A DNA stretch of 64,000 bases, from sequence record NC_024142.2. The stretch is one strand, 5' to 3'. The notes under the pieces were generated by a model. The model saw nothing but the letters and a program-made list of their open reading frames with translations. It had not been told where the DNA came from and did no database searches. This document shows positions 3,127 to 30,462 of the stretch, one piece after another; the stretch's first letter is position 1, and every line of letters begins with the position of its first letter. This DNA is from Escherichia phage Bp4. The translations under genes and the position numbers were made by a program.

Positions 3127-3371
3127 AAAGAAAGGTAGAGCTAGTACCTAACTGGAAAAGATGCTGGAAGTGGGCATCCATCCAGATTAGTACGCTCGGG
3201 TTAATTATGTTTTCTGCCATAGATATCATTCAACCAATGCTGACAGGATTACCTCGTCACATCCTGGAAGATATTCCCCATGGCTCCAATATTGTAATCG
3301 CACTGTTTGCCTTAAACATCATAGGCAGATTAATACGATTCCGACCAAAGGAAGATTCACATGAAAGCTAA
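3111..3371 (+). CDS. putative holin with two predicted TM helices
   Basis: ATG at 3111 inside ORF track 3045..3371; two hydrophobic segments (ISTLGLIMFSAIDII and IVIALFALNIIGRLI); directly upstream of endolysin. Confidence 0.45.
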   Translation: MVRRLKRKVELVPNWKRCWKWASIQISTLGLIMFSAIDIIQPMLTGLPRHILEDIPHGSNIVIALFALNIIGRLIRFRPKEDSHES

Positions 3372-16354: not shown

Positions 16355-19300
16355 TTGAACAGGAAACATGCTATGTCAACATTTGACCGTCTGGCAGGTT
16401 TCGCAGACAGCATCACTAATGCTAAGCAAGTCGATGTCTCTACTGCAACCTCTCAGAAGCAAGCTGCACAAGGGCAAAGCCCTTTCCAATTAACCCCAGA
16501 GAATGCTTACAATCTCCAGACTGGACGAGTAGGTAATCTTGGAATCGGTGCATTCGAACCAGGTTCACTTCAGGCAGATTTCACTCAAGCCTCCCCATTA
16601 GAAATCATTAATAAGTACGGTAATGAGCAAGGTTTACAAATTCTTAATAGCCGAGCTAATGCTGCTGATGTTGTACGTCAGGACTTATCTAAACAACGTA
16701 CTAACGCAGAAGCATTTGGCGATACTCTTTCTGGTGTTGGTCTTGGTGTTGCTAATACCCTTGGGGGCATTGCTGCTCTTGGTACAGGCTTGGTCAATGA
16801 TAATGCCGGGGCATCCATTGCTTCCGGTCTTGACTGGTTGAATAAAGGTGTACACAACCTACAGTCTGATGCACTGAATGCTCGTCGTAATGTAGTACAG
16901 AACCAGAACGTAATATCTGCTCAAGAGAATGAGAAACTCTATAAGCAAGATATTGCTAAAGGAGAAAGTGAACTCGTTGCTTCTCTGTCTCGTATTGGAC
17001 GAGATGCCTATGATTCTGTTGCTAACACCCTGTCTAATGACATGGCTGCTACAGATGGCCTGGCTGAAGGTGTTGGTTCATTCTTTACTGGCGGTCCACT
17101 TATCCGTGGTGTATCTGCACTTGGTAAAGTAATGGTAGGTGGTGATAAAGCTGTTAAGGGTATTACCTTAGCTGCTGAATTAGGTTATCGTCCTGCACGT
17201 ATTGCACAGACTGCTGGTCGTGTTGCTGCACCTGCTATAGCAATTGGTGGTATGGAAGCTGGTGGTGCATACCAACAGACTGCTAATGAAATTATGGAAA
17301 TGCCATTCAGTGAACTGGCTGCTAAATCTCCTGTATACCAACAGCATATTAAAGACGGTCTGTCTCCTGAAGAAGCACGTCGCCAGACTGCATCTGAAAC
17401 AGGTATCACTGCTGCTGGCTTAACTGCTCCAGTTGCTGCTCTTACTGCTCCACTGGTATCCAAGTTTGAACTTAACCCACTTAAGGTAGGTTCACTGGCT
17501 GGTGCTGGTTCTAACATGCTGCGTGAGACTGTAGAAGAAGGTATCCAGTCTGGTACAAGTCAGTTTGCACAAAACAAGGCAATTCAGGGCAATGTAGATG
17601 CTGAGCGTGATTTGCTTAAAGGTGTGGGTGAACAAACTGGTCTGGGTGCATTGTATGGCTTCGGTTCTGCTGGAGTTGCTCAAGCTCCTGGTGCAACTGT
17701 TAAGGCTGCTGGTGCTGCCGTTGGTCCTGCTGTACGTACTACCCTGGCTGGTGCTTCTTTGGCTGGTAAGGCACTAGCAAAAGTAGCTTCACCTATTACT
17801 AACATCCTGGTTCAACGTGGGGAAGAAGTTGCTAAGCGTAATGAACAAGCATCCCCCGTATCTGATGCTACGGTTAACGCTGCTGCACAAGAAGCTACTG
17901 CTCAGGCAGAACAAGCTCAAGCAACTGTTCAGGAAGCAGTGGATGCAATGGATATTTCTCCAGAAGAGAAAGCTGCTGCTACCCAGTATGCTGCTGACTT
18001 AACTCAGGCAATGAAGTTTGACCCGGTAGAATTGGAACAAACTAACCCAGCAATCCGTGAAGCTGTTTCTGGTTCCACTAACCGTGTAGAAGCTATTCAG
18101 AAGATGGCTGACTTGGTTAATACTGCCGAAGACCCTAACGTTCAAATGGAAGCTGCAATCCAGATGTATGACAATATCATGTCTATGGATAGCTTCATTA
18201 ACCGTGACCCGGGTGCTTTGGCTAATCTGGAACAAGGTTCCCCTGCTGCTGCAATCGTAGACCAATTCTCCGGCCTGATGGCTAACGTACAGAATACCCC
18301 TAAAGTACTCCGTGCATTTCGTGCCATCCATTCCATGATTCAGGAACAGGCTGAAGCGGGTAAGCTGAAAGCTACTGAAGAAGCTAATCAAGCCCAAGCA
18401 AACAACATTGCTATGGCTGCTGATGTATCTCCAGAAGTGCTGGATGCAGATTCAGTGAACATGGTTCTGAAACATGCAAGTGAAGGTAAGATTACACTGG
18501 GGAATCGTCAACGTGCTGCCCTGCAATCTGCTGCTGCCTTATTACAGGGTGCACGAGAGTTCGACGCTAAAGCAGAAGAACTAGGCTTACGTCCTCAAGA
18601 TATTGTTAGTAAACAGATTAAAACCGATGAGTCTCGTTCTAATGAAGGACAGTACTCTGCGTTGCAACATGCGAAACGCATTCGTTCTGCGTATAACTCT
18701 GGTAACTTCGATTTGGCCTCCGCTTATCTGAGCGATTTTATGAAGTTCGCCCAGCACATGCAGAATAAGGTCGGAGCGTTGAATGAGCATCTGATTTCGG
18801 GGAATGCGGATAAGAATAAGTCTGTTCATTATCAGGCTCTCTCGCCTTCCCGTGAATGGGTACGTAGTCGTACTGGCCTCGGTGTCAATCCTTACGATAC
18901 CAAGTCTGTTAAGTTTGCCCAGCAAGTAGCACTGGAAGCTAAGACCGTAGCTGACATTGCTAACGCACTTGCTACGGCTTACCCGGAGCTTAATGTTTCT
19001 CATGTGAAAGTTACCTCGTTGGATTCACGTCTGAACAAGCCAGCTGCCCAGGTAGTTAAAGAGTTCCGTCAAGGTGGTCTTGATGCCACTCAGTCTCAAC
19101 AGACTAATGAACCAGTGAATCAGGTTGATGAAACTCCTGCACTAGTGCAAGAGGACACCACTACTGTACAGCCTAAAGATAAACTAGTGGTAGAAAATAA
19201 GACTGCTCCTACTAAAGAGACTAGTCCAAAAGCAGAAGAAGTCTCTACTACTGAATCTGAAAGAGATGCTTATGTGAAAGAAAATACTATTTCACAGGAA

Positions 19301-22300
19301 ATTCTTAATAAGAATGGTGACCGTAGAGAAAGCCCTTGGTTGTTTGCTGATGGTACTGTGGTTGGTTCTAATGGCGACCATATCAGCCTGTCCGACGTAT
19401 TTGGGCATGATGGTTATCGTGATATGTCTCTGGATACTGGTGCTATTCGCTCTACCTTCTATAAAGGTAGTGAGCAACCATTTGTATCTCTGCAACTGTT
19501 TGATAATCAGAAACTGACTGCTGAACAATTCAATACTGTTCAATCTTTCGTTGAAGCAAACAATGCACTGATTCAGGTTGGTGTAGATACGTCTGGGCGT
19601 AATACCAATAATGTTGAGAAGGAAGAAGTATCACTAGCTCAACTGAAAGCAGACTATACCGTCGGTGGTAAACCTCTATCGGAAATGGAAACAGTGTTCC
19701 CTGTTTATAACAATGACAAGACACCGAACCAGTTCATTAAATCATTCTCTCTTCCAGAAGAACCTAAGTCTCGTACCATTGGTTCCGAATCTCCTTTGAC
19801 TGATGTTAAGAAAGCACTGTCTTCTGCTGCTCGCTTTGAAGCATTTACTCAAAAAGAAAATAACGCTCTCACAAGTGATGTGATTAAGCGTTACCAGGAC
19901 TTATTTGAGTTTGGTGAAACTCTGAAGACTACTCTGTCTGACCGTCTGGCTAAGTTCCTTGCTAACAAGAACGTTGGTAAACGTTTTGCGGAAGGTACTG
20001 AGGCTAACCGTTGGGTAGGTGGTAAGTTACTTAACATCGTAGAGAAAGATGGTGACACCTTTAAGTTCAATGACCAGCTATTAGAAACTGCTGTACTTGC
20101 TGGTCTGCAATGGCGATTGACTGCTACACAGAATGCTGCTGTTAAAGACATGAAAGACGTAGCTGCTATTACTGGTGTGGAAGCATCTCTGCTACCAGAA
20201 GGTATTCTGGCTGACTTCGAGAATGCTCAGACCCTGGTTGAAGCTACTAACTCACTAGCTCAAAAGATTGAATCCTATTGGGGTTTGAATCGTAATCCTA
20301 ATGCACCTTTGGGGTATACCAAGGGTATCCCAATGGCAATGGCTACAGAGATTCTGTCTTCCCTTATTGAGATGGGTGAAGTTAAAGAGTCCATGTTAGA
20401 TGTGTCTGAGATTGACCCAGAATCTAATAAGACTGTTGGTCTGTATACCATTGAGAAGCTGGATGATAACGATGCCATTAATAAATTCCCTACTGCTATT
20501 GAGGAAACTGTCCTTTTAGAACCAGTAGAGAAATTGTATCTGGGTGATGACATTCCTTCCGTGGCTCAAACTCAGTTACGTAACCCGGCTGTTAAGAATA
20601 CCCCGGAACAGAAAGCTGCTCTCAAAGCAGAACAAGCTACTGAGTTTCGTGTACATATGCCGATGGTTAATTTCTATGAAGCATTGGGTCGTGACAACAT
20701 TCTGGAGTTAATGGGTGCTGGTGCTCTTAATCCAGAATTGCTGAATGTGAATACTGCTAAGTCTCTGGAAGGTAAAAACCTGTCCGTGTCCATGGCGTAT
20801 GATTCCTTGTTTGGTGTAATCAATCAAATTAAGGAACAGGAGAATGGACTGGATACACCTATTCACTATGGCTACAACATGACCCGTGTAGGTCGTATGC
20901 AGATGCTTGGTAAGAACAACCCACAGTCCAGCAAACTGGTACGTGAAGCAATCTTACCAACCTTCTCTACCATCGACTTGAGTAATGAAAACAGTCAAAC
21001 GTTCTCTGACTTCCAGTTAGGTCTGGCTCAGGCATTGGGCATCAAAGTTCATAAAATGTCCCGTGAAGTTATGTCGGATGAGCTGACTAAAGCTCTGGAA
21101 GGTAAATTGAAACCTGCCGTTGATATGATGGTCGAGTTTGATAAGTCTGGTCACTTACCTGCTGATGCAGTGGATATTCTGAAGACTTCCTTGGGGAATG
21201 ATAAATCATTCGTAGCTCTTATGGCCCTGATGGAATATGCCCGTTACCTGAATAGTGATGATCGTGCCAACTTTAATACCCCACTGTACGTTGAAGCCGA
21301 TGGTGTAACCAATGGACCAATTAACGCAATGGTATTAATGACTGGTGGTAAGTTTACTTCAGACTGGATTAAGAATACTGCTAAGGGTGGTTTGTTCTTT
21401 GGTAAAGCTGGCAAGACTATGAACGAACACCATTCGCACGAGGATAGTGTTGACCTGTATGAAGCATCCACTAATAGTCTGCAACAGGCACTGAATGAAT
21501 TACGTAATAATTACCGTAACAACGTTCCTGTTACGAATCAGATGAAGCATCTTCAGAAGTTAATGGACCTGTTCATTAAAGACTTCAATCTTAATGAAGA
21601 TGGTACTCTGGACCTGAAACGTGGTATCGCTAAAAACCCACTGACCATTACCATCTATGGTTCTGGTGCTCGTGGTATTGCTGGCAAAATGGTAAGTGCA
21701 ATTACTGATACCATCTACGAACGCTTCAGTGACGTTCTACAAGCCCGTGCTGCTGACCCTAGCATTTCCCCAGCTATGGCTATGTTTGGTAAGGAGGCTG
21801 CGTCTGAGGCTGATGCTCAGGCTATGCTGGATACTTTCCTTACTTCTATGGAAGCACTAACTGGTAATGTTCCGGTTATGCGTAAAGGTGAGTTGTCTAT
21901 TCAGCAGGTAGATGGTGCTCTGACTGGTAAGTTAGACCCTCAGAAGTTTACTGTATCCGGTAATGCTCTGAAGAACTTACAAGAGAACATGCTTCATCTG
22001 TTCGTTGAACCAATGCGTACTGGTATCCGAAATACCGTGGGTGAAGGTCTGATGTACTCTACTGAGAACTTGCAGAAAGCTACCCAGATTCAATCTCTGG
22101 TTCTGCAAGACATGTTCCAGCAACGTGTTCAGGAGAAACTGGCAGAAAAAGAAAAAGACCCAACATGGAAGAAGGGTGATTTCTTAACACAGAAAGAACT
22201 GAATGAAATCCAGGCTTCATTATCTCCACTGGCTCCAATGATTGAGACTGGTTCACAGACTTTCTACATTGCTGGTAGTGAGAATACTGATGTTGCTAAC

Positions 22301-25300
22301 CAAGTATTGGCTACCAACTTAGATGACCGTATGCGTGTGCCAATGAGCATCTATGCTCCTTCACAGGCAGGTGTAGCAGGTATTCCATTTATGACCATCG
22401 GTACAGGTGATGGCATGATGATGCAGACCCTTTCTACTATGAAAGGTGCTCCGAAGAATACCCTGAAAATCTTTGATGGTATGAACATTGGTATTAATGA
22501 CATTACTGATGCAAGCCGTAAAGCTAATGAGGCTGTATATACTTCCTGGCAGGGTAACCCTATCAAGAATGTTTATGACTCCTTTGCTAAGTTCATGAAG
22601 AACGTAGACTTCAGCAAACTGTCTGATGAAACCAAACAAGCTATCGCTAAATCTGCACTGGAATACGACCAACGTGAGGGTGCTACTGATGACCTGTTAC
22701 GTGTTGGTGCTGAACAGATTGAACGTAATCTGCGTAACATTGCTCTGGGTGTGGATATTCGTCATAAGGTAATGGACCAGGTACAGGTCACTGTTGACCA
22801 GATGGCTGCTGTTGGTGCTCCTTATGTGAACAACGGTAAAATCTCTCTGGAAGGTCTGACTGTAGACCAGCAAGTAGCTAAGCTGAACGAACTGTTTGAT
22901 GCTGAATTAAACAAGCGTCGTGATGCAGTACGTGCTGCTAAAGCAGAACCAGTGAAAGAAGTGCCAGCAATGGAACAGGTCGGTCGTGTACTGAAGTCTG
23001 GTGTACGTCTGCTGTCTAATGCTGCCATTACTAAACTGGCTAAAGAGATGTCCCCTGAACAACAAGCAGTACTGAAAGAAATACAGAAATCTCTTGCTGC
23101 TAAAGACTATAAGGTTGTTTATGGTACGCCTTCTCAACTGGATGCCTATGCTATTGAGAAGAACATTACTCGTCCAGCACCGGAAGATATTGAAGCTGCT
23201 GAAGCAGGTAATGCATATGGCTGGACTAACTTTGAAGATAAAACCATCTACTTAGTTACCCCTTCCTTAGAGACTCTGGTTCATGAATTGGTACATGCCT
23301 CTACTTTTGAATCTGTACTAGCTCACTACGAGGGTACTCCTAACGAAGCAGTCCAGAATATTGAAGACCTGATGAACCAGTTCCGTGCTCTTGATGTTAA
23401 GAATGAATCTCCGGCAGTACGTGAAGCATATGCCGATGCACTCAATACCATTAATGGCCACTTGTCCAATGGCTTTATTGAACCAGCAATGGCTAAAGCT
23501 GCTGCACTGAATGAGTACATGGCTTGGGGTTTAACTAACCGTGAACTTATAAGTAAGCAGAAGAAAACCACTGCACTTAAAACTATGGTTCAGGCTGTAT
23601 ATGAAGCAATCAAACGTCTGGTATTCGGACGTAAGAAAGCTCCTGCTAATGCAGATGATATGTTCTCTGGCTTACTGTTTAACTCTGCTGTAGTAATGCG
23701 TGGGCAGGCTCCTACTGCTGCTGTAGCCAAAGATACTACCTTGTTCCATAACAAAGCATACGGTGACAATACTCGTCTGGAAGAGCTAGGGAAAACCTTC
23801 GATAAGCTGATTACTAACTACATTGGTTCAGAACCAGTACAGCAAGTAATTCGTAAAGGTAAGTTCTCTGATGCAGTAGTAAAAGCAACTAAAGTAACTC
23901 GTGATGTTCAGGCTCATGGCTTCACCATGAATATGCAGGAACAGCGTCTCTTCACTAACATTGTTGCTGCACTAGCTACTGAGGCTGCTATTAACCCTGC
24001 TGCTATGGCTCGTGCACAGGAATACTACACGCATGTTACTAAGAACCTGACTGTTGAAGCGTTCATGGCTGACCCGGATAGTACTAACCCTGCTGACCGT
24101 TACTATGCACAGCAGAAGTTCGATACCATCATGGGTGCTAATAACATTGAGTTTGATGCACAGGGTCGTTCTTCCTTACTACCTACCTTTGTTGGTCTGG
24201 TAATGGTAAGTGAAGAAGTACGTAAGGTGCTGGCTGATATTTCTGTTATGAAAGCAGATAAAAAATCTGGCAATACTGTTGATGCAATGCTGACTAACAT
24301 CGGTACTGCTGCAATGGCTAGTCTGAATGCTCGTGTAGCAGGTGATACTAAAGCCACTAACGTACAGGAAGGTATGGATGCACTGGCTCAGACAATCATG
24401 CAGACCAGTCTTAACGCAGAATCCTTCTATGATTCCGTTGCTACTCCTACCGGTAATGCTATCGACCGTGCTAACCAGTATTTGGTGGACTCTATTGATG
24501 CATTGTCTACCCGTGCTTTAGAAGGTGCTCGTGAAGTTGCAGCTAATACCAAGAATCCATTGGTCAAAGGTGCTGCTCATGCTGCACAACTGGTAGCTGC
24601 TATTGCTACAGAGAAGAATGGTGCAATCGTAGCCGAAGGTGTTATGGCTGCAATGAACCAGGGTAAAGTATGGCAACCTTTCCATGACCTGGTTAATGAC
24701 ATAATTGGACGTACTAAGAGCAATGCTTCTGTATATGATTTGATTAAAGCAGTACGAGCACAAGTGCAGGCTGACCGTCAACAGTTCCGTGAACACTTGC
24801 CTACCACTATCGCATCCAAGTTCAGCCGTAAACTGACTAATGATGAGTGGAAAGCAATGCATACCGGTATGGGTAAAACTGACTTAGCTGTTCTGCGTGA
24901 CACTATGTCTTTGGATGAAATCCGTGACCTGCTGACTGACCAGAAGAATGTTGACCGTGAGGTTAATAAACTGGAAGCAGATTTGCAGAAACAAGCAGGA
25001 CGTAACTGGCCCCTGATTAACCGTAAATCTAAGCAACTGGCTCAGTATATGATTAACGGTACAGTCGGTAATAACCTGCTGCGTAATGCTACTGCAATTT
25101 CTCGTTTACTGGGTGAACGTAAGACTACACGTTCTGTTGTAGATGTAGCTCAGCTGGATAAACTGATTACCCTGTATGCACTGGAAGCAATGAGTAAGAC
25201 TGACCGTGAGGTGTTATCTTCACTGGCTCAGACAGAAGTTGAAGGCATGGACTTTGCTACTTCTTACCTGGTTGGTCAGCGTAAAGACGAAATGGCTAAA

Positions 25301-27085
25301 GCCAAGTCTGATAGCCGTGCAACCTTGAACCAGTACAAAGGATACATCCCAACTGAGAACAAACAGGGTGTTAACCTGATTGTTGCTGAAGATAATCAGT
25401 TTGCTGATTTGATTGAGAAATCCTATGTACGTCTTGGTACTTATCAGGGTAGCTCTGCTAACCGGGGTCCAGCACGTAGTTACTACTTTGCACCGGTACA
25501 GGCACAGGCTCCGTTCTCACAAGGTATCCTACAGAACGTTCGAAATACTGCTGGTGGTGTAGACCTTGGTACAGGCTTTACGATGGGAACCATGGTAGCT
25601 GGTCGTATTACTGACAAGCCTTCCGTAGACCGTATCACTAAAGCACTGGCTCGTGGTGAACGTGGCAATGAACCACTGCTGCCTGTATATGATGCTAATG
25701 GTAATGTAGTTGCTTATGAGCAATCTATTGACCCTAACATGCTGAAGCACATTGAGGGTGAGAATCATCTTGCTCGTGCAATCGGTGTATGGCGTGGTCG
25801 TCAGGTGGAAGAAGCTAAGGCTCAGCGTTTCAACGATATGCTAATTGAGAACCTGCATAGCATGTATGAGAACGACATTAAGATGTCTGCTTCTAATAAG
25901 TCCCAGTACGTTAACCTTCTTGGTTCTAAACTGGACCCAGTAACTGCCGATGCCCTTAAGCTGATGAACAGTGAAACTCGTCAGAAAGCAGAAAGTCTCT
26001 TTGGTCCAGGTGAATTGTGGGTGCGTCGTGACATGCTTAATGATGCTCTGGGTTATCGTGCAGCTTCTGTAGGAGATGCCTGGTCTGGTAATTCTCGTTG
26101 GTCACCAGAAACACTGGATACCTTCAAGAAAGCTATGTTGGGTGTATTCGGCAACCGTGCCTATAAGTATGTAATGGGTGGTGAGAACCTGGTTCAGAAC
26201 TTAGTTAAAGAAGCTAAGACCCTGATTGTAGTTAAGTCAGTAGTTGTACCTGCTGTTAACTTCCTGGCTAACCTTTACCAGATGGTTGCTCGTGGTGTAC
26301 CTGTTAAGAACATTGCTAAGAGCATCCCACAAAAAACTGCTGAGATTAACCAGTATCTGAAATCTCGTCTGCGTCAGGTAGATGCAGAAGCAGAATTACG
26401 TGCAGCTACTAACCCGAACCAGATTCGTAAACTCAAGGCTGAGATTCAGTCCATCTCTGATAGCCATAAACGTTTGAGTATCTGGCCTCTGTTGGAAGCT
26501 GGTGAGTTCTCTTCAATTGCAGATGCTGGTATTGGCCGTGATGACATCCTGATTACTGAAGGTAAACTCCACGAATACATGGAAAAGCTGGCTGATAAGC
26601 TGCCTAAGTCTGTTCGTAACGCAGGTCGCTATGCACTTATCACTAAGGATACTGCTCTCTTCCAGGGTATTCAGAAGACGGTTGAGTACTCTGACTTTAT
26701 TGCTAAAGCAATCATCTATGATGAACTGACTCAGCGTAAAGGTAAGACTCGTGAAGAAGCACTGGGGCGTGTAACGGAAGAGTTCATTAACTATGACCGT
26801 CTGCCTGGTCGATTCCGTGGGTATATGGAAAGTGTTGGTTTGATGTGGTTCTACAACTTTAAGATTCGTTCTGCAAAAGTTGCAGTGTCCATGATTCGTA
26901 ATAACCCAGTACATGCTGCTATGGCTATGTTGGCTCCAACCCCTACCATGTTTGGTAACGTTGGTCTTCCTATTCAGGACAACATCTTTAGTATTGCTGC
27001 ACAAGGCAATCTTGGTTACTCCTTTGGTTTCGGTCAAGGCTTACGTGCCCACAACCTGAACCCTTGGCTCAACCTTACTAACTAA
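16355..27085 (+). CDS. giant virion-encapsidated RNA polymerase (N4 gp50-like vRNAP)
   Basis: Single uninterrupted 3576-aa ORF (10.7 kb). This size is a hallmark of N4-like phages. Last gene of the late operon, followed by a strong terminator. Confidence 0.85.
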   Translation: MNRKHAMSTFDRLAGFADSITNAKQVDVSTATSQKQAAQGQSPFQLTPENAYNLQTGRVGNLGIGAFEPGSLQADFTQASPLEIINKYGNEQGLQILNSRANAADVVRQDLSKQRTNAEAFGDTLSGVGLGVANTLGGIAALGTGLVNDNAGASIASGLDWLNKGVHNLQSDALNARRNVVQNQNVISAQENEKLYKQDIAKGESELVASLSRIGRDAYDSVANTLSNDMAATDGLAEGVGSFFTGGPLIRGVSALGKVMVGGDKAVKGITLAAELGYRPARIAQTAGRVAAPAIAIGGMEAGGAYQQTANEIMEMPFSELAAKSPVYQQHIKDGLSPEEARRQTASETGITAAGLTAPVAALTAPLVSKFELNPLKVGSLAGAGSNMLRETVEEGIQSGTSQFAQNKAIQGNVDAERDLLKGVGEQTGLGALYGFGSAGVAQAPGATVKAAGAAVGPAVRTTLAGASLAGKALAKVASPITNILVQRGEEVAKRNEQASPVSDATVNAAAQEATAQAEQAQATVQEAVDAMDISPEEKAAATQYAADLTQAMKFDPVELEQTNPAIREAVSGSTNRVEAIQKMADLVNTAEDPNVQMEAAIQMYDNIMSMDSFINRDPGALANLEQGSPAAAIVDQFSGLMANVQNTPKVLRAFRAIHSMIQEQAEAGKLKATEEANQAQANNIAMAADVSPEVLDADSVNMVLKHASEGKITLGNRQRAALQSAAALLQGAREFDAKAEELGLRPQDIVSKQIKTDESRSNEGQYSALQHAKRIRSAYNSGNFDLASAYLSDFMKFAQHMQNKVGALNEHLISGNADKNKSVHYQALSPSREWVRSRTGLGVNPYDTKSVKFAQQVALEAKTVADIANALATAYPELNVSHVKVTSLDSRLNKPAAQVVKEFRQGGLDATQSQQTNEPVNQVDETPALVQEDTTTVQPKDKLVVENKTAPTKETSPKAEEVSTTESERDAYVKENTISQEILNKNGDRRESPWLFADGTVVGSNGDHISLSDVFGHDGYRDMSLDTGAIRSTFYKGSEQPFVSLQLFDNQKLTAEQFNTVQSFVEANNALIQVGVDTSGRNTNNVEKEEVSLAQLKADYTVGGKPLSEMETVFPVYNNDKTPNQFIKSFSLPEEPKSRTIGSESPLTDVKKALSSAARFEAFTQKENNALTSDVIKRYQDLFEFGETLKTTLSDRLAKFLANKNVGKRFAEGTEANRWVGGKLLNIVEKDGDTFKFNDQLLETAVLAGLQWRLTATQNAAVKDMKDVAAITGVEASLLPEGILADFENAQTLVEATNSLAQKIESYWGLNRNPNAPLGYTKGIPMAMATEILSSLIEMGEVKESMLDVSEIDPESNKTVGLYTIEKLDDNDAINKFPTAIEETVLLEPVEKLYLGDDIPSVAQTQLRNPAVKNTPEQKAALKAEQATEFRVHMPMVNFYEALGRDNILELMGAGALNPELLNVNTAKSLEGKNLSVSMAYDSLFGVINQIKEQENGLDTPIHYGYNMTRVGRMQMLGKNNPQSSKLVREAILPTFSTIDLSNENSQTFSDFQLGLAQALGIKVHKMSREVMSDELTKALEGKLKPAVDMMVEFDKSGHLPADAVDILKTSLGNDKSFVALMALMEYARYLNSDDRANFNTPLYVEADGVTNGPINAMVLMTGGKFTSDWIKNTAKGGLFFGKAGKTMNEHHSHEDSVDLYEASTNSLQQALNELRNNYRNNVPVTNQMKHLQKLMDLFIKDFNLNEDGTLDLKRGIAKNPLTITIYGSGARGIAGKMVSAITDTIYERFSDVLQARAADPSISPAMAMFGKEAASEADAQAMLDTFLTSMEALTGNVPVMRKGELSIQQVDGALTGKLDPQKFTVSGNALKNLQENMLHLFVEPMRTGIRNTVGEGLMYSTENLQKATQIQSLVLQDMFQQRVQEKLAEKEKDPTWKKGDFLTQKELNEIQASLSPLAPMIETGSQTFYIAGSENTDVANQVLATNLDDRMRVPMSIYAPSQAGVAGIPFMTIGTGDGMMMQTLSTMKGAPKNTLKIFDGMNIGINDITDASRKANEAVYTSWQGNPIKNVYDSFAKFMKNVDFSKLSDETKQAIAKSALEYDQREGATDDLLRVGAEQIERNLRNIALGVDIRHKVMDQVQVTVDQMAAVGAPYVNNGKISLEGLTVDQQVAKLNELFDAELNKRRDAVRAAKAEPVKEVPAMEQVGRVLKSGVRLLSNAAITKLAKEMSPEQQAVLKEIQKSLAAKDYKVVYGTPSQLDAYAIEKNITRPAPEDIEAAEAGNAYGWTNFEDKTIYLVTPSLETLVHELVHASTFESVLAHYEGTPNEAVQNIEDLMNQFRALDVKNESPAVREAYADALNTINGHLSNGFIEPAMAKAAALNEYMAWGLTNRELISKQKKTTALKTMVQAVYEAIKRLVFGRKKAPANADDMFSGLLFNSAVVMRGQAPTAAVAKDTTLFHNKAYGDNTRLEELGKTFDKLITNYIGSEPVQQVIRKGKFSDAVVKATKVTRDVQAHGFTMNMQEQRLFTNIVAALATEAAINPAAMARAQEYYTHVTKNLTVEAFMADPDSTNPADRYYAQQKFDTIMGANNIEFDAQGRSSLLPTFVGLVMVSEEVRKVLADISVMKADKKSGNTVDAMLTNIGTAAMASLNARVAGDTKATNVQEGMDALAQTIMQTSLNAESFYDSVATPTGNAIDRANQYLVDSIDALSTRALEGAREVAANTKNPLVKGAAHAAQLVAAIATEKNGAIVAEGVMAAMNQGKVWQPFHDLVNDIIGRTKSNASVYDLIKAVRAQVQADRQQFREHLPTTIASKFSRKLTNDEWKAMHTGMGKTDLAVLRDTMSLDEIRDLLTDQKNVDREVNKLEADLQKQAGRNWPLINRKSKQLAQYMINGTVGNNLLRNATAISRLLGERKTTRSVVDVAQLDKLITLYALEAMSKTDREVLSSLAQTEVEGMDFATSYLVGQRKDEMAKAKSDSRATLNQYKGYIPTENKQGVNLIVAEDNQFADLIEKSYVRLGTYQGSSANRGPARSYYFAPVQAQAPFSQGILQNVRNTAGGVDLGTGFTMGTMVAGRITDKPSVDRITKALARGERGNEPLLPVYDANGNVVAYEQSIDPNMLKHIEGENHLARAIGVWRGRQVEEAKAQRFNDMLIENLHSMYENDIKMSASNKSQYVNLLGSKLDPVTADALKLMNSETRQKAESLFGPGELWVRRDMLNDALGYRAASVGDAWSGNSRWSPETLDTFKKAMLGVFGNRAYKYVMGGENLVQNLVKEAKTLIVVKSVVVPAVNFLANLYQMVARGVPVKNIAKSIPQKTAEINQYLKSRLRQVDAEAELRAATNPNQIRKLKAEIQSISDSHKRLSIWPLLEAGEFSSIADAGIGRDDILITEGKLHEYMEKLADKLPKSVRNAGRYALITKDTALFQGIQKTVEYSDFIAKAIIYDELTQRKGKTREEALGRVTEEFINYDRLPGRFRGYMESVGLMWFYNFKIRSAKVAVSMIRNNPVHAAMAMLAPTPTMFGNVGLPIQDNIFSIAAQGNLGYSFGFGQGLRAHNLNPWLNLTN

Positions 27086-27729: not shown

Positions 27730-28122
27730 TCAAATTGTACAACCACCACCATCACAGGTATTGTTTTCTGCAAAGGAAGCCAAAGCTTTAGCAGTCTCTT
27801 CCTTCTCATGCAGTGCCTGACGTAGTAGGTAGCCCTCTAATTCCCAAATCTTATTGAATGCATTTTCATATGCATACTGGCGACCTAACTGCTCATCATA
27901 GATAGTTGGGTCTACGCAAGCAGATACACCTTCAACTTTAAAATTGTTTTCCAGAATGATAACACAATAGGTTACCAGACCCAGGTTAGCCAAATCATCT
28001 GCCGGGAGTGCAGAAGGATCAACGAATGCAGATTTCACTGCATCAGCACCATTAAAATAGTAAACGCTCTTAATCTTAGCTTCGATTGCTTCTTTACTTA
28101 CTGTTGCCATTATTAGCCTCAT
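27730..28122 (-). CDS. hypothetical protein
   Basis: 130-aa ORF; likely start ATG at 28110 preceded by GAGG. Confidence 0.45.
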   Translation of the reverse strand: MRLIMATVSKEAIEAKIKSVYYFNGADAVKSAFVDPSALPADDLANLGLVTYCVIILENNFKVEGVSACVDPTIYDEQLGRQYAYENAFNKIWELEGYLLRQALHEKEETAKALASFAENNTCDGGGCTI

Positions 28123-28170
28123 AGAGTGGTTTGAATTTGTACTTAAGCATGATTGCGTTCATCAATACTC

Positions 28171-28198
28171 AAATAAAAAAGTCCCTCCGAAGAGGGAC
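28171..28198 (-). terminator. intrinsic terminator downstream of tRNA region (minus-strand sense)
   Basis: Hairpin GTCCCTC-CGAA-GAGGGAC followed on the minus strand by TTTTTTATTT. Confidence 0.55.
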
Positions 28199-28426
28199 TT
28201 AGTAGCTTTAACGCAGCTAACGAGGCTAGGCCAGTTAACTATTACCACCGGTGCTTGTACCAGCAAACAGGATTGATAGTCCGATAATAGTTAACTGTAA
28301 TTGAGCATTATAGTCTGCTCATACTCACACCGTTAGGTATGTTTTCAATAATTAGAGTGCCGGACTGTCTCACCGGCATTGTCTTTAGAGTGCAATGCAA
28401 TCAGGACTATGTTCTCTATTAATAAG

Positions 28427-28500
28427 TACCCACTACTGGATTTGAACCAGTGACCTTCCGATTATTAGTCGGTTGCTTTCCCCGTCTAAGCTAAGTGGGC
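28427..28500 (-). tRNA. tRNA with apparent anticodon AAU (Ile-like), 74 nt, CCA not encoded
   Basis: Hand-folded cloverleaf on minus strand: acceptor GCCCACU/AGUGGGU, D-stem GCUU/AAGC, anticodon stem ACCGA/UCGGA with loop CUAAUAA, T-stem ACUGG/CCAGU with loop UUCAAAU. Confidence 0.55.
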
Positions 28501-28945
28501 ATAAATGAGTGAGTCATGCCAGACTTTAACTGGCTCCTTCTTCGCAATCCTTACATACCCCTACATAATTATTGCGTTAAGCTTATATTGTTTAAGTTTA
28601 AGTGAAGGCGTTCTTGCTGACTCATAATAGGGTGGGCGTTTGACGAATGACTAGTTCGTTACTACCCGTTTGCCATAAGTACCTGGCGACTTTGGTTTGA
28701 GGCGGGAGTCCGAGTCCTGTACAGCCTTACCGTTCACACATTGGCAGCGTATCTAGAATAGCACTTCCGGCAACTGGATTTAACTGTTACACCCCAAATC
28801 TGGTAGGGGCGTCCAGAAGTCTCATCTGGTACTTACGCCGTCGTATGGTTACGACTTACCCCCATAATCTTTCTAATTCAAAGTAGCACTGCTCCATGTT
28901 TGGCCTTTGAACTCCGGGATGGATTAGTGCAATGCTACTTTGAAT

Positions 28946-29137
28946 TGGTTACCAGTGAGGGATTCGAACCCCCGGTTGGAGTCTATAGCTTACCGCAGCA
29001 GCTCTCCAATCTAGCGGTGTCACACTTAGTCCAAACTTGAACATATCAAGCTATCTCGTGCAACTGATAATTGGTTCCGGCGTCTGGACTCGAACCAGAA
29101 CACTTATGCCGTGCACGACACTAGTACCTACACCGGA
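28946..29137 (-). other. tandem tRNA-like elements that do not fold into a canonical cloverleaf by hand
   Basis: Minus-strand T-arms GGGGG-UUCGAAU-CCCUC and UCUGG-UUCGAGU-CCAGA, each followed by acceptor 3' strand, discriminator A and encoded CCA; matching 5' acceptor strands lie at non-canonical distances (about 124 and 66 nt). Confidence 0.3.
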
Positions 29138-29204
29138 ATTAATTGCCAGGGATTCCACCTGGTCCATCTGTTTTTATAGTCACTCAGATATCGTCTGGAC
29201 TGTA

Positions 29205-29282
29205 GGCATGGGTGGGAATCGAACCCACAAACCATTCAGCACTGTAGCCTCACGCTCTACCTATTTGAGCTATCACACACCA
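29205..29282 (-). other. tRNA-like element (good T-arm and D-arm, imperfect acceptor and anticodon stems)
   Basis: Minus strand: D-arm GCUC-AAAUAGGUA-GAGC and T-arm GUGGG-UUCGAUU-CCCAC; acceptor pairs 6 of 7; anticodon stem pairs poorly. Confidence 0.3.
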
Positions 29283-29572
29283 TTGATTAACTCCCCGTTT
29301 CTAATACACGGACGAGGACACTCCATGGTCGTTTGATAATCAGGACGACTCACTCCCGACTGACGCTTGGCTTATTAGGCTGCCATCAGAACAACATCAT
29401 CGTTTGCATTTATGTTATTGGTTCGTTTCTAAAAAACCGCATAATCGCTTACGAAAACTATCAAAGAGTACACTAAGCACAGGTAGCTACCCTGCCGTCT
29501 TCTCCACCTACACCGGCTACAGTGTAAACCTCCGCACGTTAGCTTAATGTACTCATTGATAGGATGTCAGTA

Positions 29573-29642
29573 GGTCGGGGGCTGGATTCGAACCAGCGAG
29601 AGAAGTAGCGACCATCTGCACATGCCTACGTGCTACCTCGAC
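29573..29642 (-). other. tRNA-like element (about 70 nt, short anticodon region)
   Basis: Minus strand: acceptor GUCGAGG/CCCCGAC (6 of 7), D-arm GCAC-GUAGGCAU-GUGC, T-arm GCUGG-UUCGAAU-CCAGC; anticodon/variable region 2-3 nt shorter than canonical. Confidence 0.3.
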
Positions 29643-30027
29643 CATTATAATAGGAGGGAGGGGACGAGTCCTCCCTTTATACCCTATATTGCATGTAAGA
29701 CCTAACAATTCGATGCTGTAGGTAGCTATGCTATCCGACATTTAACCCAGCCATATAGGGCTTATGTGATTAAAATGCTCAACATTGAGCGGTTAGTTTG
29801 ATAAGGGATCTGAAGCCTTATCCCAAAGATACTAACCTTTGGGATATAGCCTATCATTCAGAAATGGCCCCTATAGGGAGAGGCCATTGATTAACCCGAA
29901 TGTTGCTTTACATTTTCTGTGATAACCCATTCTTAAAATAGTTTACCTGACGGATGGGGGCCACCCCTAGCGTCAGTGCCATACGGCAAAGATTAAGTTA
30001 AGAAAGGTTATGATAGGAGTTCCTATC

Positions 30028-30228
30028 TCAAAGGATTCTAACAGAACCCTTCACGATATTAACTACTCTTTTTAATGCTTCTACTTCACCCTCTCTATAC
30101 CAAGCATATGGTACTAAGATTTTGCAGCCTTCTGATTCAATGTGAAATGCTTTCTTTCCTTCAACGGGTTCTCCACCCATGAAAGAACTAACCTTTCCAT
30201 TGAGCCAGTGAATAGTAAATTTGTTCAT
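30028..30228 (-). CDS. hypothetical small protein
   Basis: 66-aa ORF at the 5' side of the minus-strand replication block. Confidence 0.35.
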   Translation of the reverse strand: MNKFTIHWLNGKVSSFMGGEPVEGKKAFHIESEGCKILVPYAWYREGEVEALKRVVNIVKGSVRIL

Positions 30229-30462
30229 ATTAGTCTCAGTTGAACCAATGGACTTCGGAGAGTATTAAAGTCCACTGGTTCGGTTGTTGTTGTTACTCTG
30301 GCGGCTTGTCACCACCGTGTTTACCACTGCATTTCCACAGGATAATGACAGTGATGATAAAAGCTATGTATGGAGCCGACACGTCTATAATCCTGACCAG
30401 TAGTAGCATTAGGACTATAAACACTACCACACCTAGCAGCAGCTTCTGAGCCACCTACCAGA

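Follow-up and report, generated by a model that had tools for sequence, protein, structure and literature searches.

An RNA island of the N4-like coliphage Bp4 contains conserved tRNA-like elements and an unannotated tmRNA-like RNA with antisense complementarity to host tmRNA

Introduction

The closest described systems to the locus analysed here are transfer-messenger RNA (tmRNA; SsrA, RF00023) and its derivatives. The locus lies in a 64,000-nucleotide stretch of Escherichia phage Bp4 (NC_024142.2; hereafter the window), in which positions 30027 to 28171 constitute a non-coding RNA island of an N4-like coliphage. Within this island we describe the tag RNA, a previously unannotated and widely distributed RNA that combines tmRNA-like features with antisense complementarity to host tmRNA, together with four tRNA-like elements (E1 to E4).

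The tag RNA resembles tmRNA (RF00023) in its GCA resume codon, the U/A at positions −5/−4, a frame of ~10 codons that has no start codon and encodes an AN[DE]...AA peptide, a stop-codon hairpin, downstream H-type pseudoknots and coding-type substitutions. It differs in having no alanine-identity tRNA-like domain (TLD), no first pseudoknot (PK1), only two downstream pseudoknots and a 5′ end antisense to host tmRNA. Two-piece tmRNAs (RF04321, RF01849-51) of Alpha- and Betaproteobacteria and cyanobacteria likewise place template and acceptor on separate, paired RNAs, and provide the best weak Rfam match to the tag RNA (PMC11915505). Their two pieces are products of a single gene in one organism, joined by pairing at the acceptor stem and helix 2, whereas the partner of the tag RNA would be the intact one-piece tmRNA of the host, with pairing antisense to the host tag template.

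Phages named in two tmRNA surveys as carrying a tmRNA comprise Bxz1-like mycobacteriophages, Bacillus phage G and DS6A, which has a TLD only; no enterobacterial phage is among them (PMC4131195, PMC11915505). The tag RNA is like DS6A and other phage tmRNAs in being a phage tmRNA derivative, a class presumed to interfere with or supplement host trans-translation (PMC4131195). It is also the mirror image of DS6A: there the TLD is kept and the tag is absent, here the tag is kept and the TLD is absent. DicF-type prophage small RNAs (sRNAs) share with it an extended, imperfect antisense match to a host RNA, and a dicF-like element lies immediately upstream of the tag RNA of phage P1. They differ in that their target is an mRNA, whereas the predicted target of the tag RNA is the non-coding tmRNA and its antisense domain is fused to a tmRNA-type template. 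The open-access full text searched contained no natural anti-tmRNA antisense RNA, TLD-less tag RNA or tmRNA-like RNA of an enterobacterial phage.

Results

A tmRNA-type reading frame followed by two pseudoknots

All feature coordinates are positions in the window, and the features of the island lie on its minus strand. The tag RNA was absent from the initial annotation of this region and has the following parts.

29462-29291, minus strand: tag RNA, ~170 nt, between E1 and the stalk hairpin M1 on one side and E2 on the other
29419-29462, minus strand: 5′ domain of the tag RNA, 44 nt, antisense to E. coli tmRNA nt 56-107
29375-29418, minus strand: 11-nt A/U-rich linker AUAACAUAAAU followed by a tmRNA-type frame
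29291-29359, minus strand: two consecutive H-type pseudoknots (PK2, 29359-29328; PK3, 29326-29291), supported by covariation

At relaxed thresholds, Rfam reported a match to tmRNA_permuted at 29478-29375 (33.4 bits, E = 2e-4). This was the best score of any tmRNA model in Bp4; a relative (L068) reached 39 bits, and both fall short of the gathering threshold of 47. No Rfam family reached its threshold on the tag RNA of seven relatives (P1, C1, Ag3, L024, L030, L039 and L068).

The frame reads GCA AAC GAU GAU GUU GUU CUG AUG GCA GCC UAA (ANDDVVLMAA*), with AUAAAU before it and a second UAA after it. It has no start codon, an in-frame UAG stands eight codons upstream, and the stop codon lies within a hairpin. 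The bases at −5/−4 are U and A, which E. coli tmRNA also has there (U85, A86). The ORF has 10 codons in 20 of 20 distinct sequences and 11 in one divergent relative. Close pairs among these 20 ORFs show 83 differences, of which 69 affect third codon positions; 64 are synonymous and 19 are not (6/74 and 11/69 in the other two frames), counts that derive from non-independent pairs and from sequences collected with patterns that fixed the first four codons. Scans of IMG/VR added ~70 further copies. The encoded tags include ANDDVVLMAA, ANDDLMMVAA, ANDDLMLMAA, ANDEQFLAVA, ANEEMYLAVA, ANDNVFLAVA, ANEERFLMAA and ANDSEMRVAA, among others; nearly all have 10 residues, open with a GCA alanine codon (GCU in one divergent case) and close with AA or VA. 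As in tmRNA, the tag frame is a start-codon-less, alanine-initiated frame with a hydrophobic AA/VA end under coding constraint.

Upstream of the frame there is no PK1, and the antisense domain stands in its place. For the two pseudoknots downstream, the 20 sequences of the C1-type subfamily have 98.5% of alignment cells paired and compensatory change in 11 of 20 pairs, a result reached by 0/500 shuffles, with slid controls at ≤45%. The Bp4 subtype has the same architecture by eye, with stem variants UCGGGA/UCCUGA, UCAGGG/CCCUGA and ACGGGG/CCCCGU. At the level of sequence, the frame and the pseudoknots are hallmarks of the mRNA-like domain of tmRNA.

The ~190-nt tag block has matches in 313 phage records, with carriers that include Deseoctovirus C1, the Ackermannviridae Ag3, Det7 and PhaxI, Salmonella phage 7-11, Erwinia phages and HK633. 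Of 5426 complete E. coli genomes, 171 carry it too. In P1 it occupies 68899-69062 in the ban leader, between the 'dicF-like region' and trnA, and one E. coli copy sits in a lambdoid prophage, flanked by the Q antiterminator and holin genes. These contexts, the ban leader beside a dicF-like antisense RNA and the Q/holin interval of lambdoid prophages, belong to the lytic cycle. Several members are flanked by a sigma70 promoter of their own, placed to start transcription ~5 nt ahead of the antisense motif, and by a terminator of their own; in L027 a tRNA-Arg is directly followed by the tag RNA. It was unannotated in every record inspected, including 15 of 15 listed E. coli matches.

Antisense complementarity to host tmRNA

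The host sequence was ssrA from NC_000913.3 and duplexes were computed with RNAduplex; all RNA-RNA pairing reported here is predicted in silico. The 5′ domain and ssrA form a duplex of −41.5 kcal/mol, compared with −24.1 ± 2.9 for shuffles (z about −5.5). Its helices join UAGUUUUCGU to host nt 97-106, GCGAUUA to nt 85-91, which spans the resume codon at nt 90, and UGCGGUUUUUUA to nt 68-79. The whole target, nt 56-107, runs from the 3′ part of PK1 through the frame-setting linker and the resume codon to codons 2-6. The best duplex lies at nt 56-107 in 22 of 24 family members, with 36-43 bp, −40 to −50 kcal/mol and z from −2.6 to −8.6 (median about −4.8).

Several motifs of the family correspond exactly to host sequence. 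The invariant AGUUUUCGUC is the exact complement of host codons GAC GAA AAC U, the likewise invariant (U)AGUUUUCGU(C) is the exact reverse complement of host GAC GAA AAC UA, and an invariant GCGAC complements the GUCGC astride the host resume codon. UUUGCGG(n)UUUUU, also invariant, complements AAAAAGCCGCAAA, which is the PK1 3′ strand plus linker. Minus-strand BLAST recovered in Bp4 only a perfect 10-11-mer at host nt 106-96, and in relatives such as C1 and L030 three collinear blocks at nt 106-96, 81-75 and 74-68.

Pairing of the antisense domain with its own tag region is much weaker (−22.5 kcal/mol in Bp4; −20 to −31 kcal/mol across the family) because the phage template, AUAAAU/GCA AAC GAU GAU, differs from that of the host, AUAGUC/GCA AAC GAC GAA AAC, exactly at the antisense-matched positions. 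The member in L027 carries UUGUUCGUC, the complement of GACGAACAA found in tmRNAs of the ANDEQYALAA type (L228-L236). Its predicted duplex with these tmRNAs has −25 to −27 kcal/mol, compared with −20.4 for E. coli tmRNA, while Bp4 and C1 show the opposite preference. When the entire island was scanned against tmRNA in sliding 24-nt duplexes, GC-rich segments dominated, and the scan was uninformative as to further antisense segments. In these predictions the complementarity of the tag RNA is extended, significant against shuffles and conserved in relatives, which supports its assignment as a putative trans-acting antisense RNA against tmRNA, a kind for which no family is described.

Search for a tRNA-like domain

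The alanine identity of the tmRNA TLD is set by the base pair G3:U70. In the surroundings of 50 family members no cis TLD was consistently present, and many had no T-arm at all within −200 to +750 nt; because it has no TLD, the tag RNA does not qualify as a tmRNA. The whole 46.7-kb genome of C1, in which the tag RNA has its own promoter and terminator, yielded no tRNA, tmRNA or convincing tRNA-like element. G3:U70 is absent from all four tRNA-like elements of Bp4, and their positions do not suit pairing with the tag RNA. Four tRNA-rich IMG/VR contigs of 87-94 kb (L165, L166, L172 and L202) carry a D-arm-less element of 82 nt ~120 nt downstream of the tag RNA. In L165 (~2115-2196) this element has C1:G72, G2:C71, G3:U70, A73, CCA and an anticodon-like loop CUUCUAA, and it is uncalled by ARAGORN; the stem of this type of element shows a compensatory change from G:C to U:A.

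Sense-strand homology of the tag RNA to E. coli ssrA was found at the start and end of the tag only. Two candidate counterparts of TLD parts were rejected. The motif GUUUUCGUC had been considered as an analogue of the tmRNA D-loop and is the exact complement of host tag codons. The M1 stalk had been considered as a permuted acceptor with G3:U70; L140 and L085 lack the wobble pair, the discriminator is variable and there is no CCA, and the reading is also ruled out by P1, C1 and Ag3, which have no such stalk.

tRNA-like elements of the island

The initial annotation had reported one clean tRNA and at least four minus-strand elements with textbook T-arms and non-canonical remaining arms, two of them with an encoded ACCA end. 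Each of these points holds for the features listed here, and the measured lengths match the estimates given there.

28427-28500, minus strand: canonical tRNA, anticodon AAU (Ile), found by ARAGORN and by the Rfam tRNA model at 64.8 bits
29573-29643, minus strand: E1, 71 nt, near-cloverleaf with anticodon loop GUCGCUA and no encoded CCA (ARAGORN 'Ala-cgc')
29201-29281, minus strand: E2, 81 nt, tRNA-derived, with good D-arm and T-arm, weak anticodon stem and 3′ UACA (ARAGORN 'Cys-aca')
29072-29137, minus strand: E3, 66 nt, tRNA-like, without D-arm, with encoded ACCA, supported by covariation
28946-29069, minus strand: E4, 124 nt, 7-bp acceptor, T-arm and ACCA, with structured inserts in place of the D region and anticodon loop

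The window contains five T-loops of the form GGTTCRANTCC, all on the minus strand between 28438 and 29594, of which one belongs to the canonical tRNA. The expected number was 0.13, and 0 of 100 dinucleotide shuffles reached five. Only the tRNA at 28500-28427 passes the gathering threshold of the Rfam tRNA model (RF00005, 29 bits), with E1 to E4 below it. A 7-bp acceptor and a 5-bp T-stem with a UUCRANY loop are present in E3 and E4, where the pairs covary; E1 and E2 also form both helices, with one A:C mismatch in E1 (Bp4) and one U:C mismatch in E2. None of the four has a canonical D-arm together with a 5-bp/7-nt anticodon arm, since E3 has no D-arm, E4 has large inserts and the anticodon stems of E1 and E2 are mismatched. 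ARAGORN and relaxed Rfam searches, among the checks proposed at the outset, returned a sub-threshold match for E1, the T-arm of E2 and ARAGORN calls for both, and left E3 and E4 uncalled by ARAGORN.

In relatives the canonical tRNA is labelled Ile, Xle or Val, and prophages of E. coli O157 contain tRNA-Ile/Met genes with ~80% similarity to it. The anticodon AAU is unusual for isoleucine in bacteria and phages, where GAU or modified CAU is the norm.

E3 consists of a 7-bp acceptor, an invariant 9-nt linker UAGGUACUA, a 5-bp stem with loop GUGCAC(A), which has 6 nt in Bp4, a T-arm and ACCA. The nine distinct E3 sequences, drawn from five genera, have 99.3% of cells paired, and compensatory change affects 6 of the 17 pairs; 0/500 shuffles reached the pairing or covariation score and 2/500 the count of compensatory pairs, with slid controls at ≤46%. 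The copy in N4 (EF056009 32861-32937) is unannotated and identical at 65 of 66 positions (98.5%), beside a gp48 homologue with 47% amino acid identity, and in phage SPSP the element is labelled 'Undet' by tRNAscan. A 7-nt match between the E3 linker and tmRNA was dropped as chance, because the sliding scan is dominated by GC-rich segments and hence uninformative. Metazoan mitochondrial tRNAs without a D-arm exist, and the tRNA cluster of phage T4 yields the stable RNAs species 1 and 2. Like the mitochondrial tRNAs, E3 has an acceptor, an anticodon-like arm and a T-arm without a D-arm, and like the T4 RNAs it lies within a phage tRNA cluster beside other small structured RNAs; unlike the mitochondrial case, its host is bacterial, its loop has 6-7 nt and position 37 is C.

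In E4, 99.7% of cells pair among 11 distinct sequences, and 5 of 32 pairs, located in the acceptor, T-stem and internal hairpin, show compensatory change (0/500 shuffles). In ECBP1 a G to A change at 28952 turns a U:G pair of the acceptor into U:A. Judged by these substitution patterns, E3 and E4 are under structural purifying selection and are not sequencing artefacts. The suggestion that the region might hold a different kind of tRNA-like structured RNA thus gains support for E3 and E4 from covariation and extreme conservation.

E1 reached 26.3 bits against tRNA-Sec at relaxed Rfam thresholds, below the threshold of that model. It is an insertion of ~85 nt relative to most relatives, present in Bp4, ECBP1, Uz-1, L137 and L004 and absent from L002, L003, L005 and L138-L141. 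In L137 and L004 a change of A6 to G mends the acceptor mismatch, and the anticodon stem has a perfect 5 bp. A TATAAT-like box ends 4 nt upstream of E1. E2 is confined to the closest relatives, where its single variant, G4 to A, still pairs with U69; it has a folding z of −0.1, and only its T-arm matches any Rfam model at relaxed thresholds.

Sequence quality and setting of the island

The 2 kb around the island are 99.8% identical to Escherichia phage PD38 and 99.0% identical to ECBP1, both N4-like phages of the genus Gamaleyavirus (Schitoviridae). The only differences between Bp4 and PD38 are five 1-nt deletions, at 29162, 29750, 29757, 29955 and 30068 (plus-strand coordinates), mostly in short homopolymer runs; from the comparison, they look like sequence errors in the Bp4 stretch. 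The deletion at 29162 costs one base pair of a hairpin GCCAGG...CCUGGC that is intact in PD38, ECBP1 and N4, and that at 30068 falls within a small ORF (30028-30228). None lies inside E1 to E4 or the tag RNA. E1 to E4 are identical in PD38 and near-identical in ECBP1 and Uz-1, and E3 and/or E4 also occur in N4, IME11 and KP8. Since the deletions lie elsewhere and independently sequenced genomes carry the same sequences, E1 to E4 are not indel-damaged tRNAs; of the indel problem suspected earlier, the indels are real and the damage to the tRNA-like elements is refuted. Bp4 and ECBP1 differ at 20 positions, some of them compensatory, and in E1 to E4 by substitutions only.

The remaining features of the island are listed below.

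30027-28171, minus strand: RNA island, between a small gene ending at 30028 and a homologue of N4 gp48 at 28122-27730
29647-30027, minus strand: block A, a non-coding leader with several hairpins, 89-95% identical across Gamaleyavirus relatives
29458-29562, minus strand: M1, long stalk hairpin with variable insert; arms 29562-29542 and 29478-29458, a 21-nt inverted repeat with 90% complementarity
28875-28946, minus strand: M2, stalk hairpin with 18-bp arms and variable insert, an 18-nt inverted repeat with 94% complementarity
28543-28576, minus strand: H3, hairpin with conserved loop UAUGUAGGGGUAUGUAAGG; loop and covarying stems recur in relatives
28232-28297, minus strand: M3, stalk hairpin with 13-bp perfect arms, an inverted repeat
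28171-28200, minus strand: intrinsic terminator closing the island, a 9-bp GC-rich stem followed by a U-run

From 30028 to the terminator there are short ORFs only, the longest of 99 aa on the opposite strand, so that the region is effectively ORF-free, as first proposed; annotation of these ORFs in relatives is inconsistent or missing. An ORF of 3576 aa at 16355-27085 on the plus strand has a size that fits the N4-type virion RNA polymerase and converges on the gene block of the island, and the same neighbourhood in N4 is annotated as virion RNA polymerase. Among Gamaleyavirus relatives the region is a mosaic of cassettes with sharp boundaries, in which the segment after block A is swapped. 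Ordinary tRNAs occupy the same locus in N4 (Asn, Ser, Thr, Pro) and KP8 (Asn, Pro, Gln, Leu). The changes between block A of Bp4 and that of ECBP1 sit in hairpins and are compensatory, including a paired C/G indel (29761/29753) that gains or loses one base pair.

The 3′ arm of M1 overlaps the start of the tag RNA (29462) by 5 nt. In 10 relatives 16-17 of 17 positions of M1 pair, with compensatory exchange of CAA/UUG and CGG/CCG and a recurrent single mismatch at position 8, and the apical insert is swapped wholesale between relatives. Ten nucleotides of the M1 insert form a perfect inverted repeat with E2, which was judged a chance match because ECBP1 breaks the pairing by a compensatory change within a hairpin. 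The stalk architecture, with an outer 6-7 bp, a mismatch and an inner ~13 bp, recurs in P1, Ag3, N4 and enteric prophages, where the stalks often enclose a tRNA-like insert with a T-arm; the arm motif '...GCAUUG / CAGUGC...' of M2 is the same as in the prophage and P1 modules. In P1 (L013 2200-2330 and 2610-2700) and in the flanks of L030, L024 and L039 there is a long-stalk module, CACAAC-A-GGUAAGGGCAUUG ... CAGUGCUCUUUCC-GUUGUG. Inside it there is often a hairpin GGCGA-CGUCGGAGA-UCGCC together with a T-arm GAGGGUUCGAAUCCCUA, and a prophage RNA island has several copies of the module. L030 and L024 also hold a degenerate stretch resembling the 3′ end of tmRNA, a T-arm followed by CAGCUCCACGA. 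No YrlA match (RF02553) was found to the stalk modules of Bp4, P1, C1, Ag3, L024, L030, L039 and L068; the sole YrlA match, in P1, falls on two true tRNAs and has 25.6 bits, well short of the gathering score of 69.

The loop UAUGUAGGGGUAUGUAAGG of H3 also occurs on the 3′ side of the tag RNA unit in C1 (stem CCGUAAU/AUUACGG) and L027 (CAUCCU/AGGAUG), and in N4. A block of ~290 nt at 28870-28580 (minus strand; GGGGUGUAACAGUUAAAUCCAGUUGCCGGAAGUGC...) is common to Bp4 and N4, and this block with H3 is probably another structured RNA, with no Rfam family match. The spacer motif GUCCAGACGAUAUCUGAGUGACUAUAAAAACAGAUGGA(G)CCAGGUGGAAUCCCUGGC at 29202-29144 (minus strand) is kept in N4 (L143 ~1745-1810) and is also found in enteric prophage RNA islands (e.g. 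L157) and at unannotated sites of E. coli chromosomes. Sub-threshold matches to the Salmonella sRNA STnc100 (24-34 bits against 47) lie at L013 (P1) 3182-3301, L015 (Ag3) 2699-2808 and Bp4 28252-28169.

Discussion

The anatomy of the island, as laid out above, we regard as very likely correct. The explanation that we favour for the whole, and consider reasonably probable, is an RNA island with conserved tRNA-like elements and a tag RNA that docks on host tmRNA. The island would be transcribed as a single precursor and cut by RNase P and RNase Z/BN at the tRNA-like elements, acting as putative punctuation, and by RNase III at the stalks, with release of stable small RNAs. Processing punctuation and/or tRNA mimicry are the leading ideas for the released tRNA-like RNAs. 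One of the products would be a discrete tag RNA species of ~170-190 nt, starting at or just upstream of GAUAGUUUUCG. Through its antisense domain it would dock on host tmRNA, unfold PK1 and mask the host resume codon. The phage resume codon would then be presented 11 nt from the end of the duplex, a spacing like that of the host, where the resume codon is at nt 90 and PK1 ends at nt 78. Ribosomes rescued by host Ala-tmRNA/SmpB would continue on the phage template and add AANDDVVLMAA instead of AANDENYALAA. We infer that the tag RNA blocks or, more likely, replaces the host tag template. As a wider and more tentative proposal, such a 'tmRNA hijacker', which would pair across the host resume codon and substitute its own resume signal, tag and pseudoknots, may be common to many enterobacterial phages and prophages: P1, N4-like phages, Ag3 (Ackermannviridae), Salmonella phage 7-11, C1-like siphoviruses and lambdoid prophages.

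Several points weigh against this explanation. We know of no mechanism for loading a tag template in trans after the host TLD has entered the ribosome. The duplex is an in silico prediction, processing and expression are putative, and the shared 11-nt linker geometry is only suggestive. Two short-type members, L039 and L071, pair with nt 79-107 only, at energies that are not significant (z about −0.5). The apparent match of L027 to another type of host tmRNA is suggestive only and unanchored, since scans of genome contigs and a phage BLAST for the host of the L027 type returned nothing beyond the adjacent tRNA-Arg. The coding signature carries the non-independence of its close pairs. The tRNA-like elements and the tag RNA are not an obligate pair, because N4 carries E3 but no tag RNA, and the reverse is true of C1 and P1. 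E1 and E2 show no convincing covariation and may be decaying tRNAs.

The tag RNA could instead be a pure antisense inhibitor or sponge of host tmRNA that blocks the resume codon and shuts down tagging or trans-translation, with its own frame left untranslated. This reading, which we think rather unlikely, draws on the best-supported feature of the RNA, its antisense complementarity, and on the lack of a cis TLD; moreover, inhibition of tmRNA has already been proposed for the TLD-only molecule of DS6A (PMC4131195), and in P1 a dicF-like antisense RNA adjoins the family member. A pure inhibitor, however, needs no near-constant 10-codon frame in which 83% of close-pair differences fall at third positions. 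It also leaves unexplained the degron-like tags AN[DE]x...[AV]A, the U/A at −5/−4, the stop-codon hairpin and the two pseudoknots, and a template blocked without replacement would trap rescued ribosomes. Improbable to a greater degree is a self-contained split tmRNA with E3 or E4 as acceptor piece and the tag RNA as coding piece. Two-piece tmRNAs are known (PMC11915505), the succession of acceptor, unpaired linker, short helix, T-arm and ACCA in E3 is that of a tmRNA TLD, and L165, L166, L172 and L202 carry a D-arm-less element with G3:U70, A73 and CCA ~120 nt downstream of the tag RNA. The elements of Bp4 itself have C3:G70 (E3) and U/C3:G70 (E4) in place of G3:U70, and inspection, short of a formal test, revealed no complementarity that would join them to the tag RNA. 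E3 occurs in N4, which has no tag RNA, the tag RNA occurs in C1, which has no tRNA-like element, and a split tmRNA leaves the antisense match to host tmRNA unexplained.

The remaining alternatives concern the non-canonical T-arm elements. That they are functionless tRNA pseudogenes decaying in a recombination-prone cassette region is unlikely for the set as a whole. The earlier suggestion of pseudogenes may hold for E1 and E2, which have weak anticodon stems, score below Rfam thresholds and vary in presence among close relatives (E1 as an insertion, E2 in the closest relatives only), in a cassette mosaic whose locus holds ordinary tRNAs in N4 and KP8. It does not fit E3 and E4, which have invariant unpaired segments, an encoded ACCA end and at least 99% pairing with compensatory changes; E3 keeps 98.5% identity between genera that share 47% in the neighbouring protein. 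An intron-containing tRNA had also been suggested, and E4, with its normal 7-bp acceptor, T-arm, ACCA and ~50 extra nucleotides in two places, might be a tRNA whose introns or insertions are removed to give a normal molecule. We consider this very improbable: no intron family, group I included, matched in Rfam searches of 27900-30400 even at E ≤ 10, the inserts are short, conserved, paired hairpins with compensatory change, and E4 without them has no recognisable anticodon loop. Ordinary tRNAs corrupted by 1-nt indel errors are an explanation to which we give almost no credence, since the five deletions relative to PD38, real as they are, spare E1 to E4 and the tag RNA, and the same or nearly the same sequences occur in PD38, ECBP1 and Uz-1 (all four elements) and in N4, IME11 and KP8 (E3 and/or E4).

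Phage tRNA clusters are usually annotated as 'tRNAs plus junk', and here the non-canonical elements are conserved, structured RNAs. The D-arm-less E3, whose conservation extends from N4 to G7C-like phages, poses a separate puzzle that deserves biochemical study. The tag RNA represents an RNA family that has gone unannotated in phages as familiar as P1 and that 3% of complete E. coli genomes carry. Read minimally, the tag RNA would be a natural antisense RNA against tmRNA and, as such, a phage counter-host factor of a new class; if the full model is true, it would be both the first natural in-trans template for trans-translation and the first natural antisense RNA against tmRNA. Should docking hold, the choice of resume codon could be tested with an in-trans template, and the tag RNA would offer a natural scaffold for engineered trans-translation tags. 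It would also explain old genetics that tie ssrA to phage growth, and one small RNA would allow phages to reprogram or silence the main bacterial pathway of ribosome rescue and protein tagging.

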